Assembly (NCBI GenBank): GCA_000004985.1
Contig: GG738911.1
Length of the DNA: 64,000 bases
Origin: Naegleria gruberi
Taxonomy: Eukaryota
Reading direction: 5' to 3' (one strand)
Every line of letters starts with the position of its first letter. Position 1 is the stretch's first letter. Below, one piece after another: positions 6,001-58,510 of this stretch. Both the position numbers and the translations under genes were made by a program. The notes beneath the pieces are model-generated. The model ran no database searches and had not been told where the DNA came from. It saw nothing but the letters and a program-made list of their open reading frames with translations.

Positions 6001-6088
6001 GTTGTTGTTGATGGTTGTGAAAACATGTCTGTACCACAAATGCAAAGACAAAATAGAGAAATAATGTGGAAGGTGCTTGGTGTTGCAT
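1..6088 (-). CDS. Giant surface receptor, 3' partial (runs off left edge). Domain order: signal peptide, bulb-type (GNA-like) mannose-binding lectin with three QxDxNxVxY subdomains, more than 20 tenascin-type EGF repeats, N-glycosylated stalk, GPS motif, 7TM, C-terminal RGS domain. One 77-nt phase-1 intron at about 5513-5589. In-frame TAG at about 4183-4185 and a frameshift at about 4590-4620.
   Basis: Minus-strand translation shows MQHQAPSTLFLYFVFAFVV (signal peptide) and the lectin motifs QQVDGNLVLY and, after splicing GTAAGT...TATCAG, QSDGNLVLY. Repeats of CxCxxGYYGxxCE follow to about 3540. Reading runs open from 4180 to position 1. GPS-like CKYWDEKLKMWSSYGCSL...IECACSHTTMFTTF at about 1620-1480. 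Seven hydrophobic helices at about 1440-480. RGS motifs EEGYELFANFCEKEFSSENLFLF and ADRIYQKYIKTGAEMEVNIPSKSRT at about 400-1. The listed ORFs 4092..4421, 3828..4091, 3540..3788 and 1404..1601 are wrong-frame. Confidence 0.6.
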
Positions 6089-25900: not shown

Positions 25901-28216
25901 TGAGTTTCAAAACTGTTTCAACGTGAGGAAGAGGACGATCTCCATAGAAGTAGCAAATAGGAATGAGGGAGGTAAGACCTTGTACAGCAGCAATACGCAA
26001 TTCTTGAGTTTCTGGTCCAATTGTAGCACTTGATTCCTTAAGAACCTTTTGACATGCTTGAACAAAGTATGGAACAAGAATATTCAAACCCATGTGACCC
26101 ATACTGAAAATGTTCCAGCCGTGTTTGATGATTGCTTCGATAGTACGATCAGTGGCTGTATATTCTGGAACCAATCCCTTGAAAAGAGCTCTATAACAAT
26201 TGGCAAGGTATTGAACATTCAAAGGTTGACTGAATTGTGTGACCAAGATTTGACACATCATGGTATAAGCAATAACACGTCCAGATTCGAATTGATCATC
26301 AGTTCTATCACAAGCTTCAATAATCCATTCCAAAAGGATGGCAAATAACTTGTTACCTTCTGGTGAGTGAAGGAATGTAACACTGTTGGTAGAACCTCTG
26401 ACAGCCTTGACTTCAGTAATTTCAATATCCAAGAAAAGATCCAAAACTTCCTTCAAAACAACCATTTTCTTTGCATGCAAGGCTCCGTTAGTGAGTTGTG
26501 TATTCTCATTACCGAACATGTTCAAAAACTTGTGGAAAAGATGCAAAACAGTATCAATAGAAATACTCTTTGACATGTAAGTATCCATTCCTTGGAAAAT
26601 GTGTTGTTTCTTTTCAGTTTTGGCCTTCTTCTTTACAACTGTTACAGTATACATATCAGTTGTATATTCAATAAAACCAACTCTCATTCTATCTGTTGGC
26701 ATTTCAAAGATTTGTTCACAAACAATACGAGCAAGATTGAGAACAGTAGCACGCCATAAACCAAAAGCAGATGGCATGTGAGCATAACTTTGCATTAATT
26801 CGTATAATTCTTCCCACAATTTAGGATATTGATCTGTTGGGTGAGACTTGATCCATATTATGTACAAATTTCTAAAGCAGGTCTTTTCTAAAATATCGCT
26901 ATACATGACGTCGTAGTTATCACCTCCTTTAGTCTTTCTATCAACCACAGTAGAACAGATACGTTTGTGAGCAGAAAGTAAATCACTCCATGTTTCAAAG
27001 TCAATCTTGTCAGAAATTTGTGTAAAGAACATGAACATTTCCAAAACTTCATAACTCATAGTGATATGCAAATCAATATATTGTTCATCTCCTTTCATGT
27101 AGAAAATTTGACTCAAATTATCAATGAAAATACGGAAGTAGAGATTTCTGTTTCTTTCCATAATTTCAGGCCAGTTGTATAAAAAGTAATCTCTACAAAT
27201 CCATGAACGATAAGTCTTCATCATCTTGGCTAACTGTTCGTAGTGTTGTGGTGGGAGGAGGAAACTTTGTCTGAAAATCATCAAGAAGAGATAAATATCT
27301 TTATCACTTTGATAAAGAATAGTAGAATTCTTTGGACTTTCCAAGCCAGACATGATAACATCAAGAATTAACAAGTGAATTCTTGTTGGAGCTTTTTCTG
27401 TGAAACCCATATCGTCCATTTTGTTTAAAAGATCTAAACTCTTACATTCATTAGGATAAAAGATTGGTGCAAGACGAAGTTTAAAGAATTTCCACCAATA
27501 ATCAAAGTGATCAGATTCCTTCATAAATGTGAAAAAGAATGTGAAAAGTTGATAATCTTCTTCAACTGTCAAATCATTTGTAGATGTGGCAACTGCCAAC
27601 TTTTCATCAGTATTCAAGGCACGTTGACCAAATGATGGGAGCTTGATATCACGTGAATCCTCTGTCAATGGTTTAAATTTAAGAGCATTCATAATCATAT
27701 CAAGAACTTGATTATCAACATTGTCTTGCATAATATCTACAAATCTTACAATCAATTCGAACCCCTTGAAACGAATTTGGAAGATGTTTTGCTCATCCAA
27801 TAACAGTTCAAGAGTGTGAATGATGGAACGTTGTTGCCACTTTTTTTGAATGATGTTCGAAGAGTGTGCAAACAAGTTGAGTAAAATATCAGTAAGTCCT
27901 AAAACATCACTTGTTGGAATAGTTTTAGCTATTAGAAATAGGTTATTATTAGTAAAACATGAAAAAACATTAATAACAACTCACATTTCTTCTTTGCTTC
28001 TGAATTCATAGAATTCAGAGTATCCAAAAAGATGTTATAAACAATAGAATAATTCTTTTGATAGAACGCCCGTAACTCTGTATCTGCACCATCCTTGTTA
28101 AATGATGCAAGACATTTGTATCTTTTCAAAGGTTGTTCAGTATCGTCGAGAATTTTCTTCTCATCCTTTGGATTTAAAGTTCCATTGGAACCTATTCTAA
28201 ATAAAGACATTGACAT
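22918..28216 (-). CDS. TSC2: Tuberin (TSC2)-like Rap-GAP protein, about 1750 aa. First exon 28216 to about 27985, 56-nt intron at about 27929-27984, then a long exon interrupted by the scaffold gap 24171-24385. C-terminal Rap-GAP domain at 22918-24100.
   Basis: C-terminal region ...VIFHDVTRMPTKVNDSQQIQKKRHVGNDFVHIVWSEHDRDYKPWTIPSQFNFVHICVYP is co-linear with the human tuberin GAP domain (...[58 protein letters not shown]). Intron GTGAGT...TTCTAATAG joins ...NSEAKKK to SKTIPTSDVLGLTDILLNLFAHSSNIIQKKW. Confidence 0.6.
24171..24385. other. Scaffold gap (215 N) inside the TSC2-like gene.
   Basis: N run. Confidence 0.99.
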
Positions 28217-38921: not shown

Positions 38922-40055
38922 GAAACATGTAAAATCTCTCCCCAGGCTTCCTCGTCATCAGTTGATAACAATGATGAAAATTTTGAAAGTAGGCTCAAGA
39001 AGAGGAAGATCAATCCCGAAGAGGCCAAACAAGAAGAAACAAAGTTAACAAGTGAAGAGGTTGATAACTTGTTTGCCAAGTTGGGAAAGAAATTAAAATC
39101 GAAAATACCTGTTGCCTTTTCTTTGGATTTTGAATATGTGCAAACAAAGGGAGACAAGTTTAATACTCCTGAGAAGATGAATGCTCCTCTTGATGTGAAG
39201 ATTTCATATAGAAATGAGATTATTTTAGTATCGGATAGTGTGAATGGAAGAATAATGGTATTTGATTTGAATAGTGGTCTGTACAAATCTGATTTTTTCA
39301 CAGAGTTGGCTCCTTGGCAATTCGTATTGGAAGAAAATTATGATGGGGAAAAGAATGAAGCACTCATTTGCTCAACAGGTAACAATTATCTCAAATATGA
39401 TTTGTTACAATTGCTCAAGTCTGATAGATCACGTAGAGCTACACCCATTTGGAAGACCAAATTTGAAAGATTTAGCTGCTTTCAATGCTGTGCTATCAAG
39501 TATGAAACGAGTGGAAATACCTTGTATTGTTGCAATAGTGCAACTGATACCATTGTTGTCTACTCTTGTGCTAATGGGTCTGTAGTGAAGAAGATTACTC
39601 AAGCTGTTTCGTTTGAGATCCCAAATGACCCTATCAATTATTCATTCGCTAGACCTGTTGGTATAGATTATAATTTCAATTCTGGAGCTCATGAATTTGT
39701 CTTGGCAATGATGGGAGAGAGTGTTTTCTATATCAGAGAAAGTCCTGATGGTACTTGGGTGGTGAGAAATGAATTGGAAACTACTGTAGTTCAAGATGGA
39801 AGCGAGAAAACAATTTTAGATATGCCATGTGCTGCATTAATAGATAGAAATAACCATAATGTCATAATTTGCTCGTATGGAACAAGTTCAATGGCTGTTT
39901 TCAATAAGGAGGGAACATTTATTAAATCATTTGGTGCAAGAGGAAGGAATGAAAATAATAGATTTATGGATCAGACAAGTTGCTGTCTTAATGAAATCAC
40001 TGGTGAGCTACTCATTGTAGACTCACACAATAATCGTGTACAAATTTACAAATGA
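38922..40055 (+). CDS. NHL-repeat (six-bladed beta-propeller) protein. The 5' end is unresolved: there is no in-frame ATG. It is possibly initiated from an ATG-only or short first exon at about 38863 via donor ATG|GTGCGT and acceptor TTCTAG|GAA.
   Basis: NHL signatures SVNGRIMVFDLNSG ... HNNRVQIYK. The frame is open back to TAG at 38919-38921. Confidence 0.5.
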   Translation, partial: ETCKISPQASSSSVDNNDENFESRLKKRKINPEEAKQEETKLTSEEVDNLFAKLGKKLKSKIPVAFSLDFEYVQTKGDKFNTPEKMNAPLDVKISYRNEIILVSDSVNGRIMVFDLNSGLYKSDFFTELAPWQFVLEENYDGEKNEALICSTGNNYLKYDLLQLLKSDRSRRATPIWKTKFERFSCFQCCAIKYETSGNTLYCCNSATDTIVVYSCANGSVVKKITQAVSFEIPNDPINYSFARPVGIDYNFNSGAHEFVLAMMGESVFYIRESPDGTWVVRNELETTVVQDGSEKTILDMPCAALIDRNNHNVIICSYGTSSMAVFNKEGTFIKSFGARGRNENNRFMDQTSCCLNEITGELLIVDSHNNRVQIYK

Positions 40056-43212: not shown

Positions 43213-43302
43213 NNNNNNNNNNNNNNNNNNNNNNNNNNNNNNNNNNNNNNNNNNNNNNNNNNNNNNNNNNNNNNNNNNNNNNNNNNNNNNNNNNNNNNNN
43301 NN
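43213..43302. other. Scaffold gap (90 N) in the OYE upstream region.
   Basis: N run. Confidence 0.99.
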
Positions 43303-43722: not shown

Positions 43723-46700
43723 TTATTTAAAATAATCGAATTTGAGTAATTGTTGGGCAGTTGGACGAGTTTCTCGATTCTTATCCAACATTTGTAAAAT
43801 TAATTGAATTAGTTCATTGGAGTAGGAAATTGAACAGTTTCTCATTTGTTTAGTGAGGATGGTTTGAGCATTTGATGATTGATTTCCCATTAATAAATTA
43901 CTGATTGAAGTTGTTTCGTCTTTGGTCATGATTTGATAAATTGAAACTCCCAAAGAAAAGATATCCGTGTTGAAAGAGTATGAGCTTCCCAGGGCGATTT
44001 CAGGACTAAAAATTCATGTGAATTTAATGAGAATTGATAATACTTACCTCATGAAGAGAGGAGTTCCAACATATGATTGACCTTTCATTTCTTGATGCTT
44101 TTTTGCCAATCCAAAATCTGCAATTACTATTTCGATATTATCATTCTTCAAATATTTGACAAAAATGTTGGATGGTTTGATATCTCTATAATATTATTTA
44201 GTTTAACCGATATTTCTTTTGAAACGTACCTATGAATAATTGATAGTTGAGAATGAATATAATTCAAACCTTCGCATGATTGTTTCAGTATTTGCTTAAT
44301 AATATTTTCAGAACATTCTCTTTTCAAAAATTGATTCAAATCACCACTTTCATAATAATCCATGTCAATACACAGTAAACTATCTTGGGTTATGAAATAA
44401 TCATTGACTTTCAAAATGTTTGGATGTTTGATGTGGCTTAATTGGGAGGCTTCTTTCATTATTGTATTTAAATCAGAGAATGATTCAAACTTGATTACCT
44501 TAACTGCCTTGATTCGATTTCCTGCTTTTGAATCATTAGCTTTATAGACACTTCCAAATGCACCTTGTCCAATCCTTTCTATATTAGTATATCTTGAAAA
44601 GTAATCTTCAGAATTAGAAGCAGCTGATCCGGCTGAAGAGGTAATAATTGTTGATCCAGTTGGGAAATCAGACAACTCAATATTTGAAGTGTTGATACTT
44701 GCAATATCTTTTCCTTTGTTCTTTTTTTTCTTGGAAAGACAAACAATTATTACAATTACCACAATAACAATAATCACCAAAATTAGAAAACTTGCAACTA
44801 TTGGGATAGTAATTGAAACAATTAAAACAGTGGAGGTATCTATGGAATTTGTTGGAACTACTTGCTCACAATATTGGCCTTTGAATCCTCCTTTACAAGA
44901 GCAAATATTGAAATCTGAGCAGTAACCATTTCCATTACATACTGATAAATCTGATGCAAGTGTTCCATTACAAGAGAGGGACTCACATTTAGATCCATAA
45001 TATCCTTTCAAGCATTCACAGCTTTGGTTTTGAGAGTTGAATATTGCATTTCCCACACATGAAACACTCAATTTTCGTATTGTGGTTTTAGTCATTGTAA
45101 TGAACTGACTAAGTACTAAATCACTATCAATGAAATAAACCTCTTCTGTGTTTTCATTATAGCCAATAGATGGCGAGAAACCCATAAATTTAGTGTCTTT
45201 CCCAGAAAGATTGCCTGAGTAAACGTTAATATTTTCGTTAGCACTTCCTGCTAGTGTTGTCAACAGTCCAGTTGTTCTAGTGTATTTTCGTATTATGTAC
45301 GAACCATCCAAAATAATAATATCTCCATTCTTTTTAACATAAAAGGATATTGGAGATGATAGTGAAGATTCTAAGGCTGGTAGATTATTTCCTGAATAAC
45401 CAGTCTTACCATTTCCAATAATTGTTCTCAGATAATAAGTTCCATTTGCCATCTTTTCAATTACCCTTAATAGTGTACTTGTGCAATAATAGATGGAATC
45501 CTCATTAGAGGAGTAAGAGAAGAGAATAGTACCAAAATTGGTAAAATTGGTAACTGGACCATCTGGAGAGTATGAAGAAGTTACATTGGAGGCAAATCGA
45601 GTCACAATCATTCCTGTCCTTTTTTCAAGTTTACGAAAACTTGTACTGTCCGAAAGGTAGATATCTCCATTTTCTGGATTGACAGACAATCCTTTGATTG
45701 CAATGTTTCTAAATCGTGTGTCCAAAGCTGGACCATCTGTAACTGCACCACAACCATTTCCTGCAATTTTGGTTACATTCATAGTATCCAAAAAAACTTG
45801 TACAATATGGCACACATCTACAATGAATAATGAATTATCAAAGGAAGAGTGAGCCATTGTTAATATAGATTCCGAAACTAAGAAAAAGAATGGAATTTGG
45901 CCCATTGTAGGACTCGTACCCTTTACACTCTCCGTTTGGGAAATAATTTCACCAGATGTTTCATTAAACTTCTTCAAAGAAAATCTATCCAAATAATATA
46001 TTACATTATTGGCCTCATCTCTTGCAAATGCAGATGTAATTTTACCAACTTTTCTGGAGGGGTTGATGCCAACAATTGTTTGTGTGGTAGCATTTGAGAT
46101 TGTAATGTAGGATGCAAAGGCACTGTTGTAAATTGCTCCATTGATTACTTTTATACTGCCTGATTGTCTGCAACAATATTTTAGTAAATTAATTGTTACA
46201 CAACTTACAATAAAGACTTTGATAAACTAACATTCTCTCCACTGTATCCACTGAAGTGCAGAATATATTTCCTGAATTGTTATACGAATCTGCTCCTCCA
46301 ATTTTTATGAGCTGGGAATCATTCAATCTCATTTCATAAACTTTGGCTTGAAGCATTAAATATATTTTGTCGTTGTCACATGAAAAACTTTGAAATGAAT
46401 TATCAGATGAATAAACTGTTTCATAAACTGAGAGTTCCGCCAAATTAATCTTCATTATTTTAGAATAAGAAACTAAGAAATAAACACTATAGTTTCCATT
46501 TTGGTTTACAATACATGAAGAAGTAATTGGGGGAATATTGTAAATTTGTGATTGTTCTCCATTTCTGTATATAGTTATGAAATTTGGAGAGGAAAAAAGC
46601 AAGGTACCATTTGATAAAGAATTCCCTATTCCACTAATTGAAGTGATACCGGTTGGGATGTTCAATGAAGAAAGTTGCTCTGTATAAATATTAAATAAGA

Positions 46701-47812
46701 ATACATCTGTGGAAGTGACAATTACCATATCTCCATTTGGGAATATATAAGTGTTGGTTACTATACCAATATACTTCCTCTTCGGTGAGTTTTCTATTTG
46801 TAATTTGGAATAACTCCCCAAAACAGTTTTGACCAATCCATTAGAAACCTTTCTGACAATACTACTGGTTTCTATGAAAAATAGTTCATTCTTGAACGAA
46901 AACGGGTAAGAAAGTGAAGATGTTGGACTTGTTTCGAATTGTTGAATATTTTCTCCATATGGATGATTGATGACTCCTCCAGAAAATGTGGAAACCACCT
47001 TGGTTCTTGTATCAATTTTTCTAATACAGTTATTTGTCTGGTCAACTAGGTAAACTATAGAATTTTTCAAAACCAAAGAGGAGGGGTTATAAAATAGAAC
47101 TTTCGAGTAAGAATCAATCAGATCATCTCCTTCATATCCATAGAGGTCTTGCTGTCCAATGAAAGTTGATTGTACTGCTGATCCAACAGATTTCATTTGA
47201 ACAAAATGCGAAGAAGGTGAAGTTGTCCAAATTTCATTTGATGATGTTACAAATATTCCATATCTTGATAATTAATGGAGTGAATAAACTGTTTAAAATC
47301 TTCACTTACAAATTTGATTGAGGACTCAAACCGTCAACAACTCTGTACTTTCCATTGCTATCAATACGTTTCACCCTTTCCTCATCTGTGAAATAAACCG
47401 TATCCTCTTTGCCATTGGAAACAACGTGAATATTCTTTGGAGATTTCATAATGACTGAATTGGCATCCACATTATCATAACTTCCATCCAAATATGCTTT
47501 TTCACCGCCAATAGTCGAAAGTACCCTTGTTGAAATGTCATACTTTTTGATGAGGTTGTTTTGTGTATCTGCAATGTAAAGAATATTATTCGAAGAAACA
47601 ACAATTCCCAATGGTTTGTTAAATGTAGCAGAGATGGAAGAAACTAGTCCTGTTGAAGCAGAAACTATTCTAATCTTATTGTTTTGAGTATCAGCTATAT
47701 ACAAATCACCGTTTGGAGAAACACTAAGAGATGAAGGAGTATTAAATAGAGTTTCTTTTGCATGATATCCATCACTGAAACCAGCTGTTCCCAATCCTCC
47801 AAAAACTACCAT
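43723..47812 (-). CDS. Receptor protein kinase, about 1400 aa: roughly 12 NHL repeats, 3 EGF-like repeats, one TM helix (VLIVSITIPIVASFLILVIIVIVVIVIIV) and a Ser/Thr kinase domain. At least five exons: 47812 to about 47312, about 47265-46205, about 46150-44230, 44185-44048 and 44005-43723. Introns of about 46, 49-61, 44 and 42 nt. The 5' end and signal peptide are unresolved.
   Basis: Kinase motifs are split across exons: ...LSIIH|RDIKPSNIF...IADFGLAK...GTPLFMS|PEIALG...DIFSLGVSIYQ. NHL signatures LYIADTQNNKIRIV and IVYLVDQTNNCIRKID. Donors GTAAGT and GTACGT. The ORF-track pieces 47306..47812, 46189..47196, 44148..45992 and 43723..43953 are its exons. Confidence 0.6.
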
Positions 47813-48131
47813 GCTCTCATTCTTGAACCCGTATCCAAATTTCGTCTCGCCAAAGTGTTAATGGTTTAACAAAATAAAACACATTTGGTTATGTTGTGTT
47901 TAAAAGTGTGTTAGAAGAAGTAAAATTAAATTCCTTTTGTTTTGTCCTTCCGAAACAAAGATTGTTTATTACATAATAAATTGATTGTTTTGATTTTCGA
48001 AATGATGAAAGTATTGTTTAACAATAGTAATTTAGATCGAACCAAACAAAAGGATCTTTATTTAGTCTCCACTATAAATTATTCCGAAAAGACCAAACAA
48101 AGCCAATACTGTTACTGTGAAAACAAGAGGG

Positions 48132-48276
48132 CACCATTATAAATATTTATCACGGTTGCTTCATACATCACCACAGCCACCATTATAAATATTCATCACA
48201 GTTGCCACCATTATAAATATTTATCATGGTTGCTTTAAATTACAGTGCCCACCAATATAAATATTCATCACAGAAC
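48132..48276 (+). repeat. Four head-to-tail copies (two exact-like, two degenerate) of a 28-29-bp unit CCACCATTATAAATATT(C/T)ATCA(C/T)(A/G)GTTGC, 37-181 bp upstream of the ORF at 48313.
   Basis: Copies at 48132-48159, 48177-48205, 48205-48233 and 48248-48276. Each contains a TATAAATA box. Confidence 0.8.
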
Positions 48277-48312
48277 CCACCAATCATTATTACCACAAAC
48301 CATTAAAAACAA

Positions 48313-50019
48313 ATGCCACCAAAAATACAACCTCCTACATGGTCGGAGAATGATAGAACAAACATAAAACAAATGTTTGATGCTTTTAAAAACAAATCTA
48401 TCCCTGAAAATGTTGATTTAATGAATTATGGTAGATATATTGCAAATAACTATTTAAATAGTAAAATTGTATTAGGAAATTTAAATACAAACAAAAGTAA
48501 CACGTGGAAAGAATGGGAAAAAAAAGGTTATTTAAATGATTTAGAATACTTCTATAATAATTTACAAGTGAAATACTATTTAACAAATATTAAACTATCA
48601 CCTACTAATAATCCGATTGTTGGAAATAATTATTTGATCGGAAAGGAAGTACAAGTAGATCCTAAAAAGTTATTATTTAAATCTACAACAACCAAAACTA
48701 TTAGATTAGGAAAAGGTATTTTAAGTACAATTAATGAAAATAATTATTCTATGAAAGATATTATTTATAGTACTAAATATAAAGAATGTTTTAATGAAAC
48801 AAATAGTTCATTAGATATTCCTAAACATTTGCTTTTTGAAATACCAATTGATTCTAACAAATCTACTCCAATATCAAAATGTCAAACTAAAACAGATTTA
48901 AATTTACAATCAATCAAACAATCATTCCCTCCATTATCAAGCGAAGTTGAAGAAAGTAATGTTTTTGATAATAAGGAATTAAAAATTAAAGAATTATTAA
49001 TAGATTCAACTAATGATGATGATGATAATTTGTTCGATATGGATTTAGTTTCAGAAATCTTGAAAAACAAAACAAAACCTCCATCAACTCCACCATCAAC
49101 AAAACTACCCACAACTTCTCCACCAACAACTCCACTAACAATTACTCCAACAATACCACCAACTCCACTAACAATTACTCCAACATTAGATTCTCTATTA
49201 CAAATTGCCACACCAGTAATTTTAAAAGGAGAAGAAAAAAAAAGAAAATTCGATGATTATGAAAATGATGAACAAAATGAAAAGGTTTTAAAAAGATATA
49301 TAAAATCATTAGAAGAAAAAATTAATAAGTTAGAAAAGAAAATAGAAAAAAAATCCAAAATTATTGAAAATCTTATGGAAAATCAAAACAATTCCAAGAA
49401 AGTATCAGAAATTGAATATATTATACAACAAACTAAACCTATTGCCGAAAATATTATTAATAATTCTAAAATAGTACAAAATTTTATTGGTGATGTTAAT
49501 GAATTATTAAGTCAAACACATAATTGTAAACCTGTTATTATAATGGAAAAGAAAAACAAAATTATTTTATCAGATGAGGAGAAAAATAATTACTTAAAAA
49601 TGATTACTTATCATAATGATAAATCAGTAACGTTTAATTTGGATAGTATATTAGGTAAACAAATAAGAATTTCTGAAAGCCAATATCAACAATTATTAAA
49701 TAGAGGAAATTTAAAATCTGGATTTACAAAAAACTTATTTTTGGAATTTTTTAAATTAAAATCTTCAGATTTAACAGAAGAACAAATTGAAAAGGTTTTT
49801 AGATTCTTGGCTATAATTAAACCAATAACTTTTGATAAAAAAAGATTTAAAAAAGATAGGAAAAATTTGGAAAAGAAAAAAACAAAAAACGATGATGATG
49901 ATTTTGAAGAAAATGAAATAACAAAAGATATTAATAATTCTGATAATGAAAAATTTGAAATATCAGATAATAATGTTAATCAATATGATCTTACAAATAA
50001 TTTAGAATGTATGTATTAA
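48313..50019 (+). CDS. AT-rich K/N-rich protein of unknown function (568 aa) with a Pro/Thr-rich linker and a coiled-coil segment. First ORF of the candidate element.
   Basis: Long uninterrupted ORF at about 25% GC. PPSTPPSTKLPTTSPPTTPLTITPTIPPTP linker. KRYIKSLEEKINKLEKKIEKKSKIIENL coiled coil. No recognisable enzymatic motif. Confidence 0.45.
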   Translation: MPPKIQPPTWSENDRTNIKQMFDAFKNKSIPENVDLMNYGRYIANNYLNSKIVLGNLNTNKSNTWKEWEKKGYLNDLEYFYNNLQVKYYLTNIKLSPTNNPIVGNNYLIGKEVQVDPKKLLFKSTTTKTIRLGKGILSTINENNYSMKDIIYSTKYKECFNETNSSLDIPKHLLFEIPIDSNKSTPISKCQTKTDLNLQSIKQSFPPLSSEVEESNVFDNKELKIKELLIDSTNDDDDNLFDMDLVSEILKNKTKPPSTPPSTKLPTTSPPTTPLTITPTIPPTPLTITPTLDSLLQIATPVILKGEEKKRKFDDYENDEQNEKVLKRYIKSLEEKINKLEKKIEKKSKIIENLMENQNNSKKVSEIEYIIQQTKPIAENIINNSKIVQNFIGDVNELLSQTHNCKPVIIMEKKNKIILSDEEKNNYLKMITYHNDKSVTFNLDSILGKQIRISESQYQQLLNRGNLKSGFTKNLFLEFFKLKSSDLTEEQIEKVFRFLAIIKPITFDKKRFKKDRKNLEKKKTKNDDDDFEENEITKDINNSDNEKFEISDNNVNQYDLTNNLECMY

Positions 50020-50026
50020 TAATTTA

Positions 50027-50608
50027 ATGTTAAATTTTTTAGTTTTATTTATAAATAGAGAAAGAAATATGATTATGAATAATGAATGGTTAAACGGAGA
50101 TATAATGGATAAATATTTACATATTTTACAATTACAATTCCCTTTTCTTCATTTAACAAAATGTTCTCAAAGTATTTATTTTTTGGATACTGTTTTACGT
50201 ATTATTAAAAGTGCAGAAAAAATAATAGATTATTCAAAACTTAATTTTGTTACACTCAATATACCAGGTACACATTGGTTGTTATTATGTATTAGTAAGA
50301 TTAAATCAATTGTTTATATGGACATTATTGATTCTAAAATTGATTTATTATGTGACAATCTTAAAAAAATGTTAATTAAATCATTCACACAAAACTTTTT
50401 ACCAGAAAATTGTGAATTAGTTTTAAGAAATATCAAATGTAAACAACAATCAAATGGATTTGATTGTGGATTATATGTGTTATCATTTATCCGTCAAATA
50501 GGTCAATCAAATATTGAAAATTTTAATCTTAGTAATATCAATTTTGAAAATACATTGATTATAACAAGAAACGAAATGGCTGAACAGATTAAACCAAATG
50601 GTAATTAA
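50027..50608 (+). CDS. Ulp1/SENP-like C48 cysteine protease catalytic domain (clan CE, same clan as adenoviral, poxviral and asfarviral proteases), 193 aa. Starts 7 nt after the stop of the preceding ORF, in another frame.
   Basis: Catalytic-core signatures in order: WLNGDIMDKYLHIL, LNIPGTHWLLLCISKIKSIVYMDIIDS (His), NIKCKQQSNGFDCGLYVLSFI (Gln...Cys). Confidence 0.6.
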   Translation: MLNFLVLFINRERNMIMNNEWLNGDIMDKYLHILQLQFPFLHLTKCSQSIYFLDTVLRIIKSAEKIIDYSKLNFVTLNIPGTHWLLLCISKIKSIVYMDIIDSKIDLLCDNLKKMLIKSFTQNFLPENCELVLRNIKCKQQSNGFDCGLYVLSFIRQIGQSNIENFNLSNINFENTLIITRNEMAEQIKPNGN

Positions 50609-50692
50609 ATAAAGCTTCATTATTTTATGTTTTTATTAAATAATCAATTAACAAAAGTAATTTAGAAGAACTAAACAAAACCTATTTATAGC

Positions 50693-50720
50693 CACCATTA
50701 TAAATATTCATCACAGTTGT
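50693..50720 (+). repeat. Downstream copy of the 28-bp repeat (CCACCATTATAAATATTCATCACAGTTG), plus a degenerate remnant at about 50766-50790.
   Basis: Identical to the core of copy 2 at 48177-48205. Followed, like copy 3, by TTAATTACAGT. Confidence 0.8.
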
Positions 50721-51424
50721 TAATTACAGTATATACGGTTAACGCTTACAACGACAACTTCAAGGGCACCATTTATTAATATTTGGCGCCAATATTAATT
50801 AAAAAAAACAACCATACAACACACTTGGCTTATAATTGGAGGTGATATGTTGTATTAATATTCTTACAACTTTTAATACAACCAATAAGTTATTATTATA
50901 TTATAATTTAATATTTGTTTTAGTATTAATGGTAGTTAGATTATTAAAATTAGAAGAATAATAAAGAATAAATAGATTAAATATTCCCGATTTAGTCATT
51001 CGTGTAAGACATGAATTGATTTGTAATATATAAAACTAATCTCTCTCTTTACTTCTTGTAAGTAATTTATATTGGAATTTAAATTCAATTATTGTAGTTA
51101 ATTGTGTGGAAATGGAAGAAATGTGAGGAAATTTAGTATGAATATTGATGATCTTATCTTTTTGAAGATGATGGAAATAATGATGATAGTAATTAAGAAA
51201 ATATTTTAAATGATATAGTAGTGATGAAGATAACGATGGAAATAATAATGAAGTTGGAATAATATATCACATGTTTCCCTCTGCGGAATACTTTTTACCA
51301 TTCAGAACTTTATATCTGCTTAATCCAATTATGAAATTTTCTTAATCTAAACATTAATAAACATTCTTCTCGAGTTTAACAAAATTGACTTTGTGCATCA
51401 AAATCATCTATGTTTCGTTGGTCC

Positions 51425-51600
51425 AAACTATCTTTATATTTTAGACAAAACCATATTGGTTTGGTTAGTCAAAACTATTTTGGTTTGATTGGTCCAAACA
51501 ATCTTCGTTTAGTTAGTAAAAACCATGTTGGTTTGGTTAGTCGGACCGGTGTTGGTTTTGTTGGTCCAAACAATATTTGTTTTGTCAAACAAAACAAACT
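51425..51600. repeat. Degenerate minisatellite of about 24-bp units (CAAAACCATATTGGTTTGGTTAGT-like), about 7 copies.
   Basis: Tandem units are visible by eye: caaaaccatattggtttggttagt / caaaactattttggtttgattggtc / caaacaatcttcgtttagttagta / aaaaccatgttggtttggttagtc ... Confidence 0.7.
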
Positions 51601-51678
51601 CGGCTTCACAAATGGCAAACCAAATTTATTTATTTTAAATTGGTCCATCCGTTTTTTGTTTTGTGCGGAGCGATTTCC

Positions 51679-51993
51679 TCATTTTAGATCGACAAAATAA
51701 AGGACCGTCCTGACACTAGGGAATATTCTGAATATCAGATGTCTTTCACAATCAGATACGTACATGTCCTCTTCCATGCCAAAACAAATACCGCATGGGG
51801 TTTTGAGATAGGCATACTTGGCATCAAACATAGTCAGCATGTCATGACCGCTGGCAGTGTTTCCAATCAATGTTTGCACTTTATAATCGAGTGCATGTAC
51901 GAACAATGATGGAGATGTATCTTGTAGGAGTAACATGCTGCTGACACATGTCAACAACAGCAAACAATGGATTGTTACAAAGGGCGTGGACAT
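51679..51993 (-). CDS. Small hypothetical secreted protein (104 aa, N-terminal hydrophobic leader).
   Basis: ORF with leader MSTPFVTIHCLLLLTCVSSMLLL. Weak support. Confidence 0.2.
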   Translation of the reverse strand: MSTPFVTIHCLLLLTCVSSMLLLQDTSPSLFVHALDYKVQTLIGNTASGHDMLTMFDAKYAYLKTPCGICFGMEEDMYVSDCERHLIFRIFPSVRTVLYFVDLK

Positions 51994-52371
51994 GGTTTCT
52001 TTTTTTTTGAAAGTAACAATTACACGTTAGCCCAACAATTACAAAATTGGACCTTTACACCATCCAATATACATGGTAGTATCGGAAGAAACGCAAATTC
52101 CCCAACACAGAATTCTCCCTAGTTTTACTCAGCTGGAGTTGGGTTTAAAAGAATTCTGTTGGTTTTCTCGTGGTGTTCTAAATCATCGGTGATACATTGC
52201 TGCTTAGTAGGAAGTACTTCCACTCGAACAAACTTTTGGATTTGTCGCGGTTACACTGATGGATGCGCGTTGCTATTTTTTTAAAAAGCGTGTTTTGGCG
52301 CCTTTTTTGTGAATAACAGAACCACAACAAGAGAAGTAAGAAAACTTTATGTTGGTATTTTAGGTTTAGTC

Positions 52372-55300
52372 TCATTTCGAAAGTGCTTGAATTCTCTGGA
52401 GTATTTGTGAAGGACTAATTCTACTGGCAGGATCATATCGTATCATTTCCCACAATAAATCACAACAGAGTTCAAATACCTCCCCTTGGTACTTCACTTT
52501 CTTACTAAATTGAACAATGGCAGGGAGAAGAACTTTCGTATCGGCCTCATCATTTCCTTGCTTGACTCTCAGCAATACAGATGCATAATCTCCTGAAAGC
52601 AGTTGATAAACTATGCATCCTAAACTCCAAATATCACTTGGTGGTCCGAATTCTCCCTTAATAATTGCTTCTGGAGCACTGTATTGTAATGTACCTTCGT
52701 AGGCAGTGAGATTGGAACGATGTTGATGTCTTGATGATCCCCAATCACCGACACACAATAAAAAATCATTATTCCATTCCAAGATGGATTTTGATGAAGA
52801 TTGAGGGTTTTCTGGAGCTTTTGCAATGAAAATATTGGTTTGTTTCAAATCTCTGTGGACCATTCCTTTTGAATGGAGATAGTCGAGAGCAGATGCTATT
52901 TGCTTGATAATTTCCAAAACTAATTCTATTGGAATTTGATTTTGATGGGTGTGAATCCAATTTCTCAAATCACACTTGTACAATGGCATGATGATACAAA
53001 TGAATAAACTATTCTCGACCATTGTACAACCTAAAATTGGTACTATGAAAGGATTGGATTCCTCACTCAATTCATACATATTTACAACTTCCTTAAATTC
53101 ACTTCCAAATGGATTGGTAACTTCAATCTGTTTCACAGCAAATAATTCATCAGTTGTAATCTCTTTAAAAATAAATACAGATCCATAAGCTCCACTTCCT
53201 AATTTCTTAACTAGTACATATTCCTTTTCACGAATTCTGAAATGATTTCTTGATGATAAAAGGTTTGGTGAGCTCGTTGAGGCAAGAGGACTGCTGATTG
53301 ATTTACTATTGCCAGGTAAATCTCTTGGATGATTTTCGACCTCATCAATGGTTTGAAGAGATACTGCTGTCTTATTGGTTGATGAATCTATTGAACTAAT
53401 TGTTTCAGGTTCTGAACGATAAACAAATGATGGTAAAAGACTCTTCTTTTCTGGATCTTGGTTTTTGTTTCTTCTAAACTTTTTAAAATAGACAAATACA
53501 CCAATACCTATGAGTGCTGATGAGATGCAAAGGAGAATAATACTAACAACAATTGCTGCAGCTGTTCCATTTCCAGAATCAATATCTTGACAAAATTTTC
53601 CACTATACCCATCATCGCATTGACATTTTGTTGAGTTTTGATTGGAAGCATTTTGACTGAGGACACAAAGACCATTAGATGAACACCTTTTGGTTGAGTT
53701 TTGAGATGGGTTATTTGAGGACGGATCACAATCCAACCAAGAACATGTTTCTCCAAAATAAAAAGGAAAACACGAACACTTATTGAATGAGACACAAACT
53801 CCTTGATCATTGCATCCACTAGTTCTCAATTTTCCAAAGCAGTAAGGTAATGAACAATCATTACCTCCATATTCTGAATTACATTTGCATGTGTTATTAG
53901 AAATGCATGAACCATGAGGTTGACAATTATTAACACCATCACAATTATATTGTGTGCATAGTTGACCTTCCCATCCACTATCACATTTACAAGTATTGTT
54001 GGAAATACATTTACCATTCGAGTTGCAACAGGTTGAATCATTTGCCAATTTCCCAAAACATATTGGAATGTCACAGAGATTTCCAACCCATCCCTCTTCA
54101 CAATCATAAATATTTGGTCCAACACATATTCCATGTTGTGATGGAATATCACAAGAATATGATCCACATTGCTCATTTCCTTTCCATCCACTTTGACACA
54201 AACATGTGTTATTTGAGACACATGTACCGTGTGAATTACACACCAATGAATTATTAGCTATTATTCCAAAACAAACTGGAATATTACACAAATCTCCATA
54301 CCATCCACTGGTACAGGAATACTGATTTGGTCCAATGCAATTCAGTCCATGTGTTGGCTTGGGAACATCACAAGAAAAATTGCTACACATTGAATTACCC
54401 CTCCATCCAGATAGACAGGCGCAACTTCCATTCACACAATCACCATGACCTGAACAAACTTGACCTTGTGAATCAATACACGAGTCAGAGTATCTCATTC
54501 TAATGGTAAAAGAATCGCTATATAGAAGAGCACCTTCTGTAGTTATGGCAACACCATTAGTTCCCTGAATGGCATCAGTTGTAACAGTTGAAATTATTCC
54601 ATCAGTATTAATCTTTCTGATAGCATTATTGCCTTTACAATCGTTAATACTCTCAACTAAAACCAGAAACCTACCTGAATCTGCAATGAAAATAACTCCA
54701 TTTGAGGTGACAGTCACTGCAAGAGGATAGCTTAATTGAGCACTAGTTGCTTGTTTCCCATCTCCTTGATTACCTCTTGTTCCAGTACCTGTTGTTTTCA
54801 TATCATTAACATTTGAGGACTAATTTGAAATATTTTAAGCTTACCTGCAATTACTGAAATAGTTCCTTTCGATAATTTCAAGATTTGATTTCCTCCACTA
54901 TTCGCAATATATAAATCCCCATTAGGAGTATAAAATAAACTTGTCGGATAATTCAACAAGTTCGAGGTAGAAAGTGTTGTAATGGTCTTATCATTATTGA
55001 CCCTCCTAATAATATTCACTCTACTATCTGCAAAGTCGAAGAGGAATTGATCTGCCCACAATGATGGAGGCGCCACGACACCACTAGGTCCAGATAATGT
55101 ACATGAAGTAGCTGGTAATCCATCATTACAATTTCCATTATTGGATGCATATTTTCCTGCAATTGTTGAAATTATTCCAGTATTGTCCACTAATCTAATT
55201 AAGTTATTTGCACTATCTGCAATTAAAAGGCCGAGTGAAATCTTGGCCATAGCTTTTGGCTGATTCAAAAGAGATTGGATTGCTGGAATGCCATCATTGT

Positions 55301-56657
55301 TATAACCAGAATTGGACAAACTACCAGCAATTACATTAGCAAAACCAGTTTTCAAATCAAGTTTTAAAACTGCTGATTGATAGGAAGTAAGGTAGACTTC
55401 ACTATCACTTATGACTTGTAATTGATTCAAGTTTCGTAAAAAAGAGCTTGAAGCTGGTACATTCGGATTAAAAGTATATGGATAGAATCCACTAAAAAGG
55501 AGAGGTGTTTCCAAAGTACGAAAATTAAACTTCATTACTTGGGTTGCTGCCACATTTTGCATGGTTGACTTGAAGTAAATATGATCGTGTGAGTCCCATC
55601 CAAAAAAGTTAATTCCCACAATGTTGTTATCATACAGAACTTTCACCTTTGCCAACTGTTGAGTGGTTTGATTGAATAAAAGTAATTGACCTCCACCAGT
55701 AGAAACAACATAAGATGAATCATAACCCAAACTGATAATATGTAATGGATTTGTAATGGGTGCAAAATTGGCCCAATTATAAACTATTCCATTTGTACTG
55801 AACTGTAATAATCTATTATATCCAGAATCTACAACAATCATTCCATCTGAAGAAAGGGCAATACTTGTTGGATTTGACATTTTACAACTCAAAGGATCAG
55901 CACCATTACAATTACTTGATGATTGAGTATTCACACCTCCCATAATAACCTTACACAGAACACTATTTTCATCAAGAAATGTCATGGTTCTAATAAAATT
56001 ATTCCCACTATCAACAATGTAAAATATTCCATTATATTTTGTAATCATAGTTGGAGCACGAATGGCATTATACATGGCAGGATCATAACTCAAAGAAAGA
56101 GTTCTCAAAATTCCACTTTCCATATCAACAACTCTTATATAACTAGCAAAATTATAGACATCCAATATAAATAGAGAATTTGTCGATTCATCCAAGTAAA
56201 CTCCACTCGGTGATGTCAATGAAAATTCAGTAGCCAATCCACTCAATGATGGTTTATCTTGAGGCACAGAACAAATTCCATTTCCTGCCACAACCACACT
56301 CATATTTCCAATAATCCTTCTCACCACACAAAATTGAATATCCGATAAGTAAATTATTGGCAAACCACTCGAAATATCCAAAGATGATACATGAATATTA
56401 CCTTGTGGTGCTACAATTGGAAAATGGTAGGAATCAATAGTAGTGCCAATACTTCCGGCAACCATAATATTAGCATTAGAATATAGACCAGCAAATTGAT
56501 TCTCCAACTCCTTGGTTGAGTCAATTTCGACTGCAGAAGCTTCTGCTCGAATACTAATGTTGTGATGATCACAGTTGCAAAGTGTGATTACTGCTGTCGT
56601 CGTCGTGAGAAACCCCAAAATGATGCAAAGAAAGAGCTGCAGGAGTGATATCTTCAT
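52372..56657 (-). CDS. Receptor protein kinase, about 1420 aa: signal peptide, roughly 10 NHL repeats, roughly 8 EGF-like repeats, one TM helix and a Ser/Thr kinase domain. Two exons (56657-54845 and 54788-52372) with a 56-nt phase-1 intron at 54789-54844.
   Basis: Donor ATTGCAG|GTAAGC and acceptor AACAACAG|GTACTGG join ...ISVIAG to GTGTRGNQGDGKQ... in frame. Signal peptide MKISLLQLFLCIILGFLTTTTA. TM AAAIVVSIILLCISSALIGIGVFVYF. Kinase motifs LGSGAYGSVF, AVKQIE, HRDLKQTNIF, DWGSS, SAPE. Confidence 0.75.
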
Positions 56658-57019: not shown

Positions 57020-58510
57020 ATGTCCGAATCACTAAATACTTCTGCTACTACAAATGATGATCAATTCTATTGTCATCTTCATCATGGTGAAGAAGAACAT
57101 GAACATGATGATGAAGGGGTGATTAATTTTTGTGAAATAATGTCAAATACTAAATTATCCGATATTAATGATCAAAATTGTAAACAAACAATGTGTTTAT
57201 ATTATTTTTTAAATAAGGATCAGGATGTTAGTGATGGTGAATTTAAAATAATGAAATTTAATAATCAATTAAATTTAACTATTGAACAAATTGTTCATCC
57301 ACAAAATTTGGCATCAACTGCTATGTTTTTAATTAATATATGTGGAATTAATCATTTATATTATTTTAAATATTGTATTGCCGATGATGATGAAAATTCT
57401 CATATTGAACACGAATTTAATTCTTCTAATGAAGTTTTTATTAATGAACATTTAAAATTAGTACCATTTCCATTTAGAAAGAATGAATTTGTTACTAAAT
57501 TTGATAAAAGTGGAACCTTAATGAAAACTAATCTAAATTCTATTTGGGATAGTGAAGGTTCTATCATTAGTGTTAATAATAATACACTTGAACATTCTTA
57601 CCTAATGGTTAATGATCAAAGCAATATCAAATATATTGAAAATTTCAATGATGAAATAATTCATTTTGAACGAAATGGCCATCGTATATTTTTAACTAAA
57701 AGTGGTAAAATATATGGTTATGGAGAAAACTTGTATAATCAGTTAAATCTAAATGGGGGAAATGATAATTTCATTCAATTTATATCAGACATATCATTTG
57801 ATTCATTGTCATTTAAAAAAGTTATACCAGGCCTTTTTAAAACTCATTTCATTACTGAAAATGGTAAATTATATGCATCAGGTGAAAATTCTGATTACAA
57901 TTTAGGATGTTCAGAAGGAAAAACAAGACAGGAAATTCATAATGATATTTCAATAGATAATGGAAAGTTTCAATCAAATCCTGCACGTAAATGTGACATA
58001 ATAGATGAAAAATATGAAATTGAACATGTTTACCAAATTGGAATAAACGGGCTAAGCATTTTCTTAACTAGGGAAAAGAAATTATTAGCATGTGGAAAAT
58101 ATTTTGATGAAAATGGTAATCAAGTTATTTCAATTGGTGATATCTATCCACTAGATGGTGAAATCGATCAATTATTCATCTGTGCAAACAAGTATTTACT
58201 TGTGATTACTAAAAATGGAAAGGTTCATGTAATTGGTAAAAGAAATATCGATCCAAAGAATTATAACAAAAAATCAACTCGTATTTTAGAAGATAGATTT
58301 ATTGAAAGGGTCAAAACTCAAATTGAAACTTTAATTTCATTGGACGAAAGAATTTTTGGAAAATTAGAAATTTATCCAAATCCATTTGATATGGGTTGTG
58401 TTTTGAAATTGGAAATGTCCTTGGATTTGATAATATTTTTCAAGTCGTTGAGAAGTCAATCCCTCCAAAGCAAGACAGGCTTTTCAGATTTAACTTTCAA
58501 CTTTTGTTAA
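57020..58510 (+). CDS. RCC1-like repeat (seven-bladed propeller-type) protein with an N-terminal Cys/His-rich segment. Very AT-rich and N/K-rich.
   Basis: RCC1-type turns FLTKSGKIYGYGENLYNQLNL and ITENGKLYASGENSDYNLGC. 496-aa ORF. Confidence 0.45.
   Translation: MSESLNTSATTNDDQFYCHLHHGEEEHEHDDEGVINFCEIMSNTKLSDINDQNCKQTMCLYYFLNKDQDVSDGEFKIMKFNNQLNLTIEQIVHPQNLASTAMFLINICGINHLYYFKYCIADDDENSHIEHEFNSSNEVFINEHLKLVPFPFRKNEFVTKFDKSGTLMKTNLNSIWDSEGSIISVNNNTLEHSYLMVNDQSNIKYIENFNDEIIHFERNGHRIFLTKSGKIYGYGENLYNQLNLNGGNDNFIQFISDISFDSLSFKKVIPGLFKTHFITENGKLYASGENSDYNLGCSEGKTRQEIHNDISIDNGKFQSNPARKCDIIDEKYEIEHVYQIGINGLSIFLTREKKLLACGKYFDENGNQVISIGDIYPLDGEIDQLFICANKYLLVITKNGKVHVIGKRNIDPKNYNKKSTRILEDRFIERVKTQIETLISLDERIFGKLEIYPNPFDMGCVLKLEMSLDLIIFFKSLRSQSLQSKTGFSDLTFNFC

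Follow-up and report, generated by a model that had tools for sequence, protein, structure and literature searches.

Two neighboring genes of Naegleria gruberi probably encode receptor-like serine/threonine kinases that share an NHL/EGF ectodomain but belong to different kinase lineages

We analyzed a window of 64,000 nucleotides (nt; the whole stretch of DNA under study) from contig GG738911.1 of the Naegleria gruberi assembly GCA_000004985.1, which is AT-rich eukaryotic DNA with about 34% guanine plus cytosine (GC). Two large genes on its minus strand, here called gene 1 (43723-47812) and gene 2 (52372-56657), are each predicted to encode an NHL ectodomain, EGF-like repeats, a single transmembrane (TM) helix and a serine/threonine kinase. 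An earlier model reading of the letters alone (the sequence-only reading) had placed both genes correctly, with the ATG of gene 1 at 47812 and its stop at 43723-43725, and the ATG of gene 2 at 56657 and its stop at 52372-52374. Gene 1 is NAEGRDRAFT_74149 (XP_002670872.1, D2VYK1; public model P0236), which comes from the same 261,328-bp scaffold as the window, and gene 2 is NAEGRDRAFT_74151 (XP_002670873.1, D2VYK3; public protein P0001). The spliced product of 52372-56657 was 99% identical over 100% of its length to P0001, which is recorded as "predicted protein [Naegleria gruberi]". Both genes are already public, but as a "predicted protein" with automatic domain annotation. The literature on Naegleria NHL proteins, receptor kinases and the kinome yielded nothing on the family, although the kinome supplement of the N. 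gruberi genome paper may mention the genes.

The features of gene 2 are as follows.

56657-54845, 54788-54675 and 54632-52372, minus strand: exons of gene 2, which encode 1395 amino acids (aa) and reproduce P0001 exactly.
56589-56657, minus strand: predicted signal peptide, aa 1-23, MKISLLQLFLCIILGFLTTTTAV, from an N-terminal hydrophobic peak.
54490-56480, minus strand: NHL beta-propeller region, aa ~60-690, from Pfam, bacterial alignments, an AlphaFold2 (AF2) model and Foldseek.
54789-54844, minus strand: intron 1, 56 nt, GTAAGC..AACAG, which joins open reading frames (ORFs) of 619 and 809 codons in frame.
54633-54674, minus strand: intron 2, 42 nt, in frame, GTAGGT..TAAAG, absent from the sequence-only reading.
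53587-54480, minus strand: EGF stalk, aa 694-991, of ~9 teneurin/tenascin-type units (EGF_TEN, EGF_2, EGF_Teneurin).
53485-53562, minus strand: TM helix, aa 1000-1025, followed by KKFRRNK, from hydrophobicity.
52375-53220, minus strand: kinase domain (Pkinase), with HRDLKQTN at 52857-52834 and DWG at 52746-52738.

Those of gene 1, apart from its 5' end, are listed below; P0237 and P0238 are N. gruberi paralogues.

47812-47310, 47263-46209, 46159-44230, 44185-44048 and 44005-43723, minus strand: exons of gene 1, which encode 1302 aa.
47309-47264, minus strand: ectodomain intron, additional to those of the sequence-only reading.
46208-46160 (GTAAGT..CAG, preferred) or 46231-46168 (GTTAGT..CAG, public model), minus strand: second ectodomain intron.
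45078-47812, minus strand: NHL-type ectodomain, from Pfam TEN_NHL and NHL, a blade hidden Markov model (HMM) and identity to P0237 and P0238.
44862-45068, minus strand: two EGF-like units (EGF_TEN, EGF_2), conserved in P0237 and P0238.
44733-44831, minus strand: TM helix, aa 963-995, Kyte-Doolittle 3.8.
44721-44942, minus strand: 222-nt segment with the second EGF unit, the TM helix and KKKK, removed as an intron by P0236.
43729-44591, minus strand: kinase domain (Pkinase), with DFG at 44118-44110 and two introns inside.
44229-44186, minus strand: kinase intron, 44 nt, GTACGT..TATAG, whose removal restores HRDIKPSN.
44047-44006, minus strand: kinase intron, 42 nt, GTAAGT..TTTAG, whose removal restores GTPLFMSPE.

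Each splice join of the sequence-only reading restores, at the level of sequence, either the frame or a kinase motif. The very short introns said to split the gene 1 kinase domain are present, with GT..AG borders, and IIHRDIKPSNIF and GTPLFMSPE result once they are taken out, by which HRDIKPSN, DFG and SPE are all regained. In gene 2, intron 54674-54633 is additional to the one given by that reading; its removal yields ADSGNNAIRKI, a canonical NHL motif found also in the paralogue P0002, and gives an exact match to P0001. The public model of gene 1 (P0236, 1223 aa) agrees with our exons except for one junction and an "intron" that skips the TM helix. The paralogues give no decision between 46208/46160 and 46231/46168 at the former, which is the junction between the second and third exons (exons B and C).

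The shared layout was recovered by running Pfam on the assembled, spliced proteins of both genes. For gene 1 and gene 2, respectively, E values were 2.4e-55 and 3.4e-44 for Pkinase, 1.7e-17 and 4.5e-14 for TEN_NHL, 5.5e-17 and 7.5e-14 for NHL, 2.6e-6 (weak) and 1.3e-23 for EGF_TEN, 1.8e-3 (weak) and 6.2e-17 for EGF_2, and 3.8e-3 and 1.3e-16 for EGF_Teneurin. Kyte-Doolittle profiles contained one strong hydrophobic helix per protein, located between the EGF units and the kinase and followed by basic residues, with its strongest part at aa 973-991 in gene 1 (3.8) and at aa 1003-1021 in gene 2 (2.7). In both genes there is exactly one TM helix between ectodomain and kinase, and all of these parts lie in one reading frame, as had been proposed from the letters alone. 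Cysteines and NxS/T sequons are concentrated N-terminal of the TM helix in both proteins, with 55 cysteines in the ectodomain of gene 2 versus 8 in its cytoplasmic part. By itself, ORF 44148-45992 of gene 1 runs from NHL through EGF and TM into the N-lobe of the kinase, and ORF 52372-54801 of gene 2 runs from NHL through EGF and TM to the end of a complete kinase. Both layouts lie within single uninterrupted ORFs, and the architecture is therefore independent of any splice. With an estimated ~7% of stops per codon in DNA of 34% GC, ORFs of 614 and 809 codons have a chance probability of ~1e-20 or lower.

The combination of a repeated motif with four-stranded blades that marks an NHL propeller was found by Pfam, the blade HMM, AF2 and Foldseek. 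More than 100 bacterial proteins with NHL arrays align colinearly to the ~630 residues that precede the EGF units of gene 2 (26-31% identity, 520-680 columns), and many of them are labeled by their source as TIGR03437 family or YvrE-like. An AF2 model of gene 2 residues 25-705, built from 34 aligned sequences, had a mean predicted local distance difference test score of 71.7. Confidence was high in two all-beta blocks of this model (residues 75-270 and residues 385-660), and DSSP assigned ~11-12 four-stranded blades to it. The top Foldseek match against the PDB was a "Teneurin-Like Protein" (9ifo_A; E 5.5e-20, 32% identity over 330 columns, root mean square deviation 3.5), and further leading matches were the NHL propellers of SOQ1 and NHLRC2, the tandem propellers of LRP6, teneurins and the two-propeller periplasmic sensor of BT4663. 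The propeller region of gene 2 probably forms two six-bladed propellers, a blade number and closure that we take from the model. The ectodomain of gene 1 is longer than that of gene 2, with ~880 residues before the EGF units, or ~975 if the candidate exon 0 discussed below is counted. Its blades are clear at both ends and degenerate in the middle according to the blade HMM, and it is 44-48% identical to the ectodomains of P0238 and P0237. There are ~9 EGF units in gene 2 and two in gene 1, and the ectodomains of the two genes are 23-28% identical to each other.

Both kinase domains are full length and score above the Pkinase (PF00069) gathering cut-off of 31.7 bits, with 188.2 bits for gene 1 and 151.7 bits for gene 2. 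All catalytic motifs are present in gene 1 (GQGAFGS, AVK, MKEAS, HRDIKPSN, DFG and SPE), and those of gene 2 (GSGAYGS, AVK, FKEV, HRDLKQTN, DWG and APE, within SAPE) include DWG for DFG as the sole change, in addition to an insert between the catalytic loop and the DWG. On these motifs, both domains look catalytically competent. Pkinase outscored PK_Tyr_Ser-Thr in both cases (188 versus 125 bits in gene 1; 152 versus 88 bits in gene 2), and HRD[IL]KxxN, found in both, is the serine/threonine form and not the tyrosine kinase motif. The nearest PDB kinases to gene 1 were STK24, STK25, STK10 and SLK of the STE20 family, together with NEK1 (E ~1e-30 to 1e-27), and the nearest to gene 2 were CDK6, a MAPK, ULK1/2 and PDK1 (E ~1e-19 to 1e-16). 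We set aside the nominal top PDB match of the gene 2 kinase, "EGFR" (9p9u_A), which is a tandem-duplicated kinase construct with a per-domain E of just 1e-12. Judging from profile scores, motifs and nearest structures, neither kinase is of the tyrosine kinase (TK) type or of the tyrosine kinase-like (TKL)/IRAK/Pelle type. The resemblance to plant and animal receptor-like kinases (RLKs) noted earlier thus holds for the architecture but not for the kinase type, which is neither TKL/IRAK/Pelle nor receptor tyrosine kinase (RTK).

The kinases of gene 1 and gene 2 are 24% identical, within the range of 24-30% found between the two types. Within the gene 1 type (P0237, P0238, P0031, P0121, P0122, P0123, P0125 and the metagenomic P0124) kinase identity is 48-79%, and the gene 2 kinase is 66% identical to that of P0002. 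In phmmer searches the gene 2 kinase scored 60-80 bits against gene-1-type kinases, with more than 150 unrelated kinases at 90 bits or above, and the gene 1 kinase scored 67-72 bits against gene-2-type kinases, which ranked around 270th, with bacterial and other kinases at 92-126 bits. Each kinase scores higher against many foreign kinases than against that of the other gene, and we therefore assign the two to different lineages. By these sequence comparisons, gene 1 groups with P0237, P0238, P0031, P0121-P0123 and P0125, and gene 2 with P0002 and P0504.

N. gruberi has further proteins of this design. Pfam found NHL, EGF and Pkinase together in P0236, P0238, P0031, P0001, P0002 and P0504, and the ectodomain of P0237 is homologous, its EGF matches being weak. 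A TM peak precedes the kinase in every family model but the faulty P0236. The distance from the start of this peak to the C-terminus is ~240 aa in the 3'-truncated P0238; in the remaining models it is 330-390 aa. Signal-like N-terminal helices are present in P0001, P0002, P0031 and P0441. The last of these (1389 aa) combines a gene-1-like kinase (192 bits), a TM helix and a signal-like N-terminus with an ectodomain that has no Pfam match. The first residues of P0121 and P0122, "MIISSS", fall in the conserved juxtamembrane motif (I/V)I(S/T)SS, and P0123, P0125 and P0495 are kinase-only or fragments; all five are probably truncated models of further receptors. The family comprises at least 7 and perhaps a dozen or more members in N. 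gruberi. A separate observation concerns P0031 (2313 aa, on another scaffold), which has a stalk of ~1000 residues and a motif, ECNTTHLSLFS (~1940-1980), that resembles a G protein-coupled receptor (GPCR) proteolysis site (GPS) and lies just before the TM helix, which may point to a receptor kinase with a juxtamembrane module of the autoproteolysis type.

Homologues were sought in collections of 5.8 billion and 1.84 billion (representatives) proteins. Near the top of these searches, in which the inclusion of other Naegleria proteomes is unconfirmed, N. gruberi was the only named organism to contribute a close relative. When the TM, juxtamembrane and kinase portion of gene 2 was compared with the 1.84 billion representatives, 25 proteins matched at E <=1e-30, and the strongest after P0001 were a metagenomic fragment in a 90% cluster with P0504 and giant multi-kinase proteins. 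The latter (P0356-P0363, from bacteria, a bird and metagenomes) were rejected as relatives, as they were ranked by the summed scores of 4-10 kinase domains. Three environmental fragments, P0124 (ENA contig, 2353 bp), P0355 (ENA contig, 2430 bp) and P0361 (Logan contig, 1375 bp, SRA-derived), encode kinases 50-52% identical to gene-1- or gene-2-type kinases, and P0355, which clusters at 90% identity with P0504, also has teneurin-type EGF repeats and a TM helix. These environmental contigs encode family kinases, and the family therefore exists in uncultured Naegleria-like organisms. The earlier suggestion of lineage specificity remains a fair reading, with "Naegleria-specific" as a provisional label.

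The N-terminus of gene 2 is hydrophobic and signal-like; in gene 1 such an N-terminus was seen just in a candidate exon upstream of the annotated start, here called exon 0. The features of this region are the following.

51715-51993, minus strand: candidate exon 0 of gene 1, unannotated, 93 aa with a signal-like peptide and a first NHL blade, from its hydrophobic N-terminus and junction alignments.
47813-51714, no strand assigned: AT-rich 3.9-kb block between exon 0 and the first annotated exon (exon A), GC 0.248 versus ~0.33 in exons.
50027-50608, inside the block, 7 nt after 48313-50019: unannotated ORF with a Ulp1/Peptidase_C48 match (E 7.5e-11).

Exon 0 is held by ORF 51993-51679, which has 104 residues, starts 379 nt downstream of the gene 2 stop and is absent from the searched protein collection. 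The product of exon 0 joined to exon A (…LIFRIFPS|NESMVVFGGLG…) aligns across the junction with P0031, P0001 and P0002 in the register of the NHL blades, with no gap or one gap of 1 residue, and many bacterial NHL arrays gave high-scoring segment pairs that start inside exon 0 and continue into exons A and B of gene 1. A single-blade protein of 104 residues makes no sense alone, and we therefore assign 51993-51715 to gene 1, with moderate confidence, as its initial exon. Gene 1 probably starts at 51993 and not at 47812. The intervening block includes NAEGRDRAFT_74150, the plus-strand ORF at 48313-50019 between the two genes, in which no Pfam match was found. A 21-nt motif, CACCATTATAAATATTYATCA, has four copies ahead of the two ORFs (48132-48270) and a fifth behind them (50693), against a chance expectation of 0.01, and a 24-nt tandem array lies at 51411-51597. 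We found no terminal inverted repeats, transposase domain or phage match in the block and no second copy of it in the window. Either an inserted element or a gene nested within a long first intron could account for the block.

Taken as a whole, these data make type I, single-pass, receptor-like serine/threonine kinases the likely products of both genes, which represent two kinase lineages with the same type of ectodomain. From the outside to the inside, each protein would consist of a signal peptide, NHL propellers, an EGF stalk, a TM helix with a basic stop-transfer sequence, a serine-rich juxtamembrane linker of ~50-90 residues and the kinase. We hypothesize that the propellers bind an extracellular partner and that the disulfide-rich EGF repeats by the membrane act as a rigid spacer. 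Ligand binding or surface clustering could bring receptors together, upon which the kinase domains would trans-phosphorylate the activation segment and the juxtamembrane region, and the signal would pass to cytoplasmic substrates. This mode of action is modeled on single-pass receptor kinases in general and on the NHL sensor of PknD, and we infer the surface location and ligand-dependent kinase activation of both proteins from their predicted sequences.

Several observations weigh against this interpretation. The DWG of gene 2 and the insert before it depart from the standard kinase pattern, and its activity is a prediction. The middle of the gene 2 ectodomain (model residues 274-382; aa ~300-405) was modeled with low confidence. 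The TM helix is missing from P0236, and the hydrophobicity profile of gene 1 contained no signal peptide at the annotated start, 47812. Every available donor of exon 0 is non-consensus (e.g., GTCAGG), and the 3.9-kb gap that would have to be spliced out is ~70 times the length of the other introns and contains an annotated gene on the opposite strand, such that gene 1 could be disrupted at its 5' end.

The alternatives that survive best concern what the proteins do and whether gene 1 is whole. The proteins could serve chiefly in adhesion or in the recognition of surfaces, be it substrate, prey or cell-cell contact, with a kinase that reports mechanical or contact engagement and not a soluble ligand. 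Teneurins, which are adhesion molecules, build their ectodomains from the same NHL and EGF modules, and the best Pfam NHL and EGF models here were teneurin ones, as were leading Foldseek matches. The very long stalk of P0031 with a GPS-like motif before the TM helix recalls adhesion GPCRs, and an adhesion-GPCR-like gene (EGF/GPS/seven-transmembrane [7TM]) is a neighbor in the window. The present data do not separate adhesion from ligand sensing, and a contact or adhesion role is equally compatible with them; as a predominantly adhesive function, which we judge rather unlikely, it would be a variant of the receptor kinase interpretation and not a contradiction of it.

We also considered that gene 1 is truncated or disrupted at its 5' end, with an insertion of ~3.9 kb having cut off the signal-peptide exon and left, from 47812 on, a pseudogene or a nonreceptor protein barred from the secretory pathway. 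This would fit the lack of a signal peptide at 47812, the non-consensus donors after exon 0, the low GC of the block compared to exons, its own flanking repeat motifs and the C48 protease ORF inside it, and a frame-keeping join from before the insertion can be drawn (…LIFRIF|KNESMVV…), with TTC common to both edges. However, the downstream ORFs of gene 1 are intact across 1302 codons with conserved catalytic motifs, which is unexpected for an old pseudogene, and neither terminal inverted repeats nor, in the window, a second copy of the block was found. The public models P0238, P0237 and P0504 also lack signal peptides, which points to generally missed 5' exons rather than to a lesion specific to this locus. 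We consider the disruption of gene 1 doubtful.

That genes 1 and 2 are recent tandem duplicates, as the word "cluster" in the sequence-only reading suggests, appears very improbable. They are adjacent, on the same strand and of the same architecture, and for 7-13 family loci in a genome that we take to be ~41 Mb, fewer than 0.05 pairs within 10 kb are expected by chance. Their low identity in both kinase and ectodomain, the many foreign kinases that are closer to each than the other gene's kinase, and the much closer paralogues of each on other scaffolds, where all other family members sit to judge by scaffold lengths, nevertheless argue against local duplication. The NHL/EGF design thus appears to have been assembled or kept on two distinct kinase scaffolds, with the adjacency being something other than a recent tandem duplication. 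We speculate that the adjacency is still meaningful, e.g., as the result of an old duplication or of an exchange of ectodomain exons. A broader scenario, which we put forward tentatively and do not expect to hold in full, is that Naegleria joined a bacterial-type NHL array, maybe laterally acquired, and EGF and TM segments to at least two unrelated kinase lineages, that the adjacent pair is the trace of an ectodomain-exon exchange and that the family recognizes bacteria, as prey, or other surfaces in the environment. Lateral acquisition of the NHL array is possible because the closest sequence matches are bacterial surface proteins that are colinear over ~600 aa.

We give very little credence to the possibility that the public model of gene 1 is right and that the protein is a soluble NHL-kinase with 44942-44721 as an intron. 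The segment does begin with GTATGT and end with AG, and the gene-finder picked it as an intron. It is, however, in frame and free of stops, 3.5-5 times as long as the six short introns modeled in the two genes (42-56 nt; 64 nt for the public alternative at the B/C junction), and higher in GC (0.31) than five of these six (0.21-0.27). Its translation corresponds precisely to EGF unit 2, the TM helix and the basic stop-transfer KKKK, all of which are retained in P0237 and P0238. It is best read as coding, with XP_002670872.1 wrongly splicing the TM helix out. Least credible of all is a split of each gene into an NHL gene and a kinase gene, the case named at the outset as the one that would undo the interpretation: some paralogue models are kinase-only (P0121-P0125), with no positive evidence found at the locus, but these start within the conserved juxtamembrane motif and so look truncated. 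At the DNA level the split is contradicted by both genes, in each of which one ORF spans NHL, EGF and TM and continues into the kinase.

Elsewhere in the window, the EGF-rich 7TM gene with a regulator of G protein signaling (RGS) domain that had been reported at the left edge is indeed present by eye (window positions 1-6088, minus strand) and runs off the edge. A signal peptide and a segment resembling bulb lectin lie at 6088-5525, and many EGF repeats at 5564-4186. Between 4182 and base 1 (at least 1394 aa) the frame stays open and contains more EGF repeats, a long serine/threonine-rich stalk, a GPS-like CACSHTTMFT, 7TM helices and an RGS-like C-terminal part, FANFCEKEFSSENLFLF. Read by eye, the gene looks like an adhesion-GPCR design fused to RGS. 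The "soluble NHL protein" proposed at 38922-40055 (plus strand) does have one NHL match, which is weak (E 1.3e-5), but there is no ATG at 38922, and BLAST found no similarity of this segment to any receptor ectodomain. It is probably an internal exon of an unrelated intracellular propeller protein. The other features are as follows.

18103-22500, minus strand: ORF of 1465 codons with a TmcB-like tetratricopeptide repeat segment and a C-terminal PAS domain.
24099-27875, minus strand: ORF of 1258 codons with a RALGAPB N-terminal domain, broken by the gap at 24171-24385.
24171-24385 and 43213-43302: the two assembly gaps in the window.
57020-58510, plus strand: ORF, NAEGRDRAFT_74152, RCC1-like.

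In summary, our findings are modestly novel: they describe a lineage-restricted, uncharacterized receptor-kinase design that sits on two unrelated kinase scaffolds, they overturn nothing, and the function of the proteins is inferred. At the level of gene models, NAEGRDRAFT_74149 regains its TM helix and probably gains a first exon (51993-51715), and a number of N. gruberi models that consist of a kinase alone are probably truncated receptors. With the family, the question of how a bacterivorous amoeboflagellate perceives its environment can be put to a defined set of genes. Several eukaryotic lineages evolved receptor kinases independently of one another, and each of them illustrates how a cell links an extracellular binding module to phosphorylation. 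The heterolobosean NHL-propeller family would be a further independent example, on kinase scaffolds unrelated to those of plant and animal receptor kinases.

Among known systems, the plant RLK/Pelle family and the animal receptor kinases have the layout predicted for the Naegleria proteins, with a signal peptide, a repeat ectodomain, a single TM helix, a linker and a cytoplasmic kinase, and they too form lineage-specific families. They differ in that the Naegleria kinases are of other types than those of plant RLK/Pelle proteins, animal RTKs or animal receptor serine/threonine kinases (TGF-beta receptors), and to our knowledge, NHL ectodomains are not a feature of either the plant or the animal families. 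Free-living and parasitic amoebae likewise have independent, lineage-specific receptor-kinase repertoires, as seen in the transmembrane kinases (TMKs) of Entamoeba and in the kinases of Acanthamoeba. The ectodomains of Entamoeba TMKs consist of CXXC/cysteine-rich repeats, and those of the Acanthamoeba kinases have other domains than the Naegleria proteins. No Entamoeba or Acanthamoeba sequence was among the best matches of the Naegleria kinases. The transmembrane kinases and cyclase-kinases of Acanthamoeba have been proposed to sense prey and the environment (PMC4053784).

Teneurins and the teneurin-like proteins of bacteria and protists combine an NHL propeller with tenascin/teneurin-type EGF repeats in one ectodomain, as the Naegleria proteins do, with the EGF repeats nearest the membrane. 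The YD-repeat shell, FN-plug, Tox-GHH and intracellular teneurin domains, however, are unmatched in the Naegleria proteins according to Pfam, and teneurins are type II proteins, whereas those of Naegleria are predicted to be type I with a C-terminal cytoplasmic kinase. The closest counterpart in design is PknD (Rv0931c) of Mycobacterium tuberculosis. According to PMC6107167 (citing Good et al. 2004) and PMC1262709, the extracellular NHL propeller of PknD is the sensor domain of this receptor serine/threonine kinase, and PknD and other bacterial NHL-sensor kinases resemble the Naegleria proteins in having a Hanks-type serine/threonine kinase, one TM helix and an extracellular NHL propeller. The Naegleria NHL regions are also most similar in sequence to bacterial NHL arrays. 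There is no specific relationship between the kinase domains of PknD and those of the Naegleria proteins, and PknD has one six-bladed propeller and no EGF repeats, whereas the Naegleria proteins would have ~12 or more blades and an EGF stalk. The kinase of PknD is N-terminal and its propeller C-terminal, an order that is reversed in Naegleria, in which the predicted signal peptide and the propellers are N-terminal and the kinase is C-terminal. Collectively, this comparison suggests that the Naegleria family is a eukaryotic, inverted-topology counterpart of PknD-type bacterial sensors.

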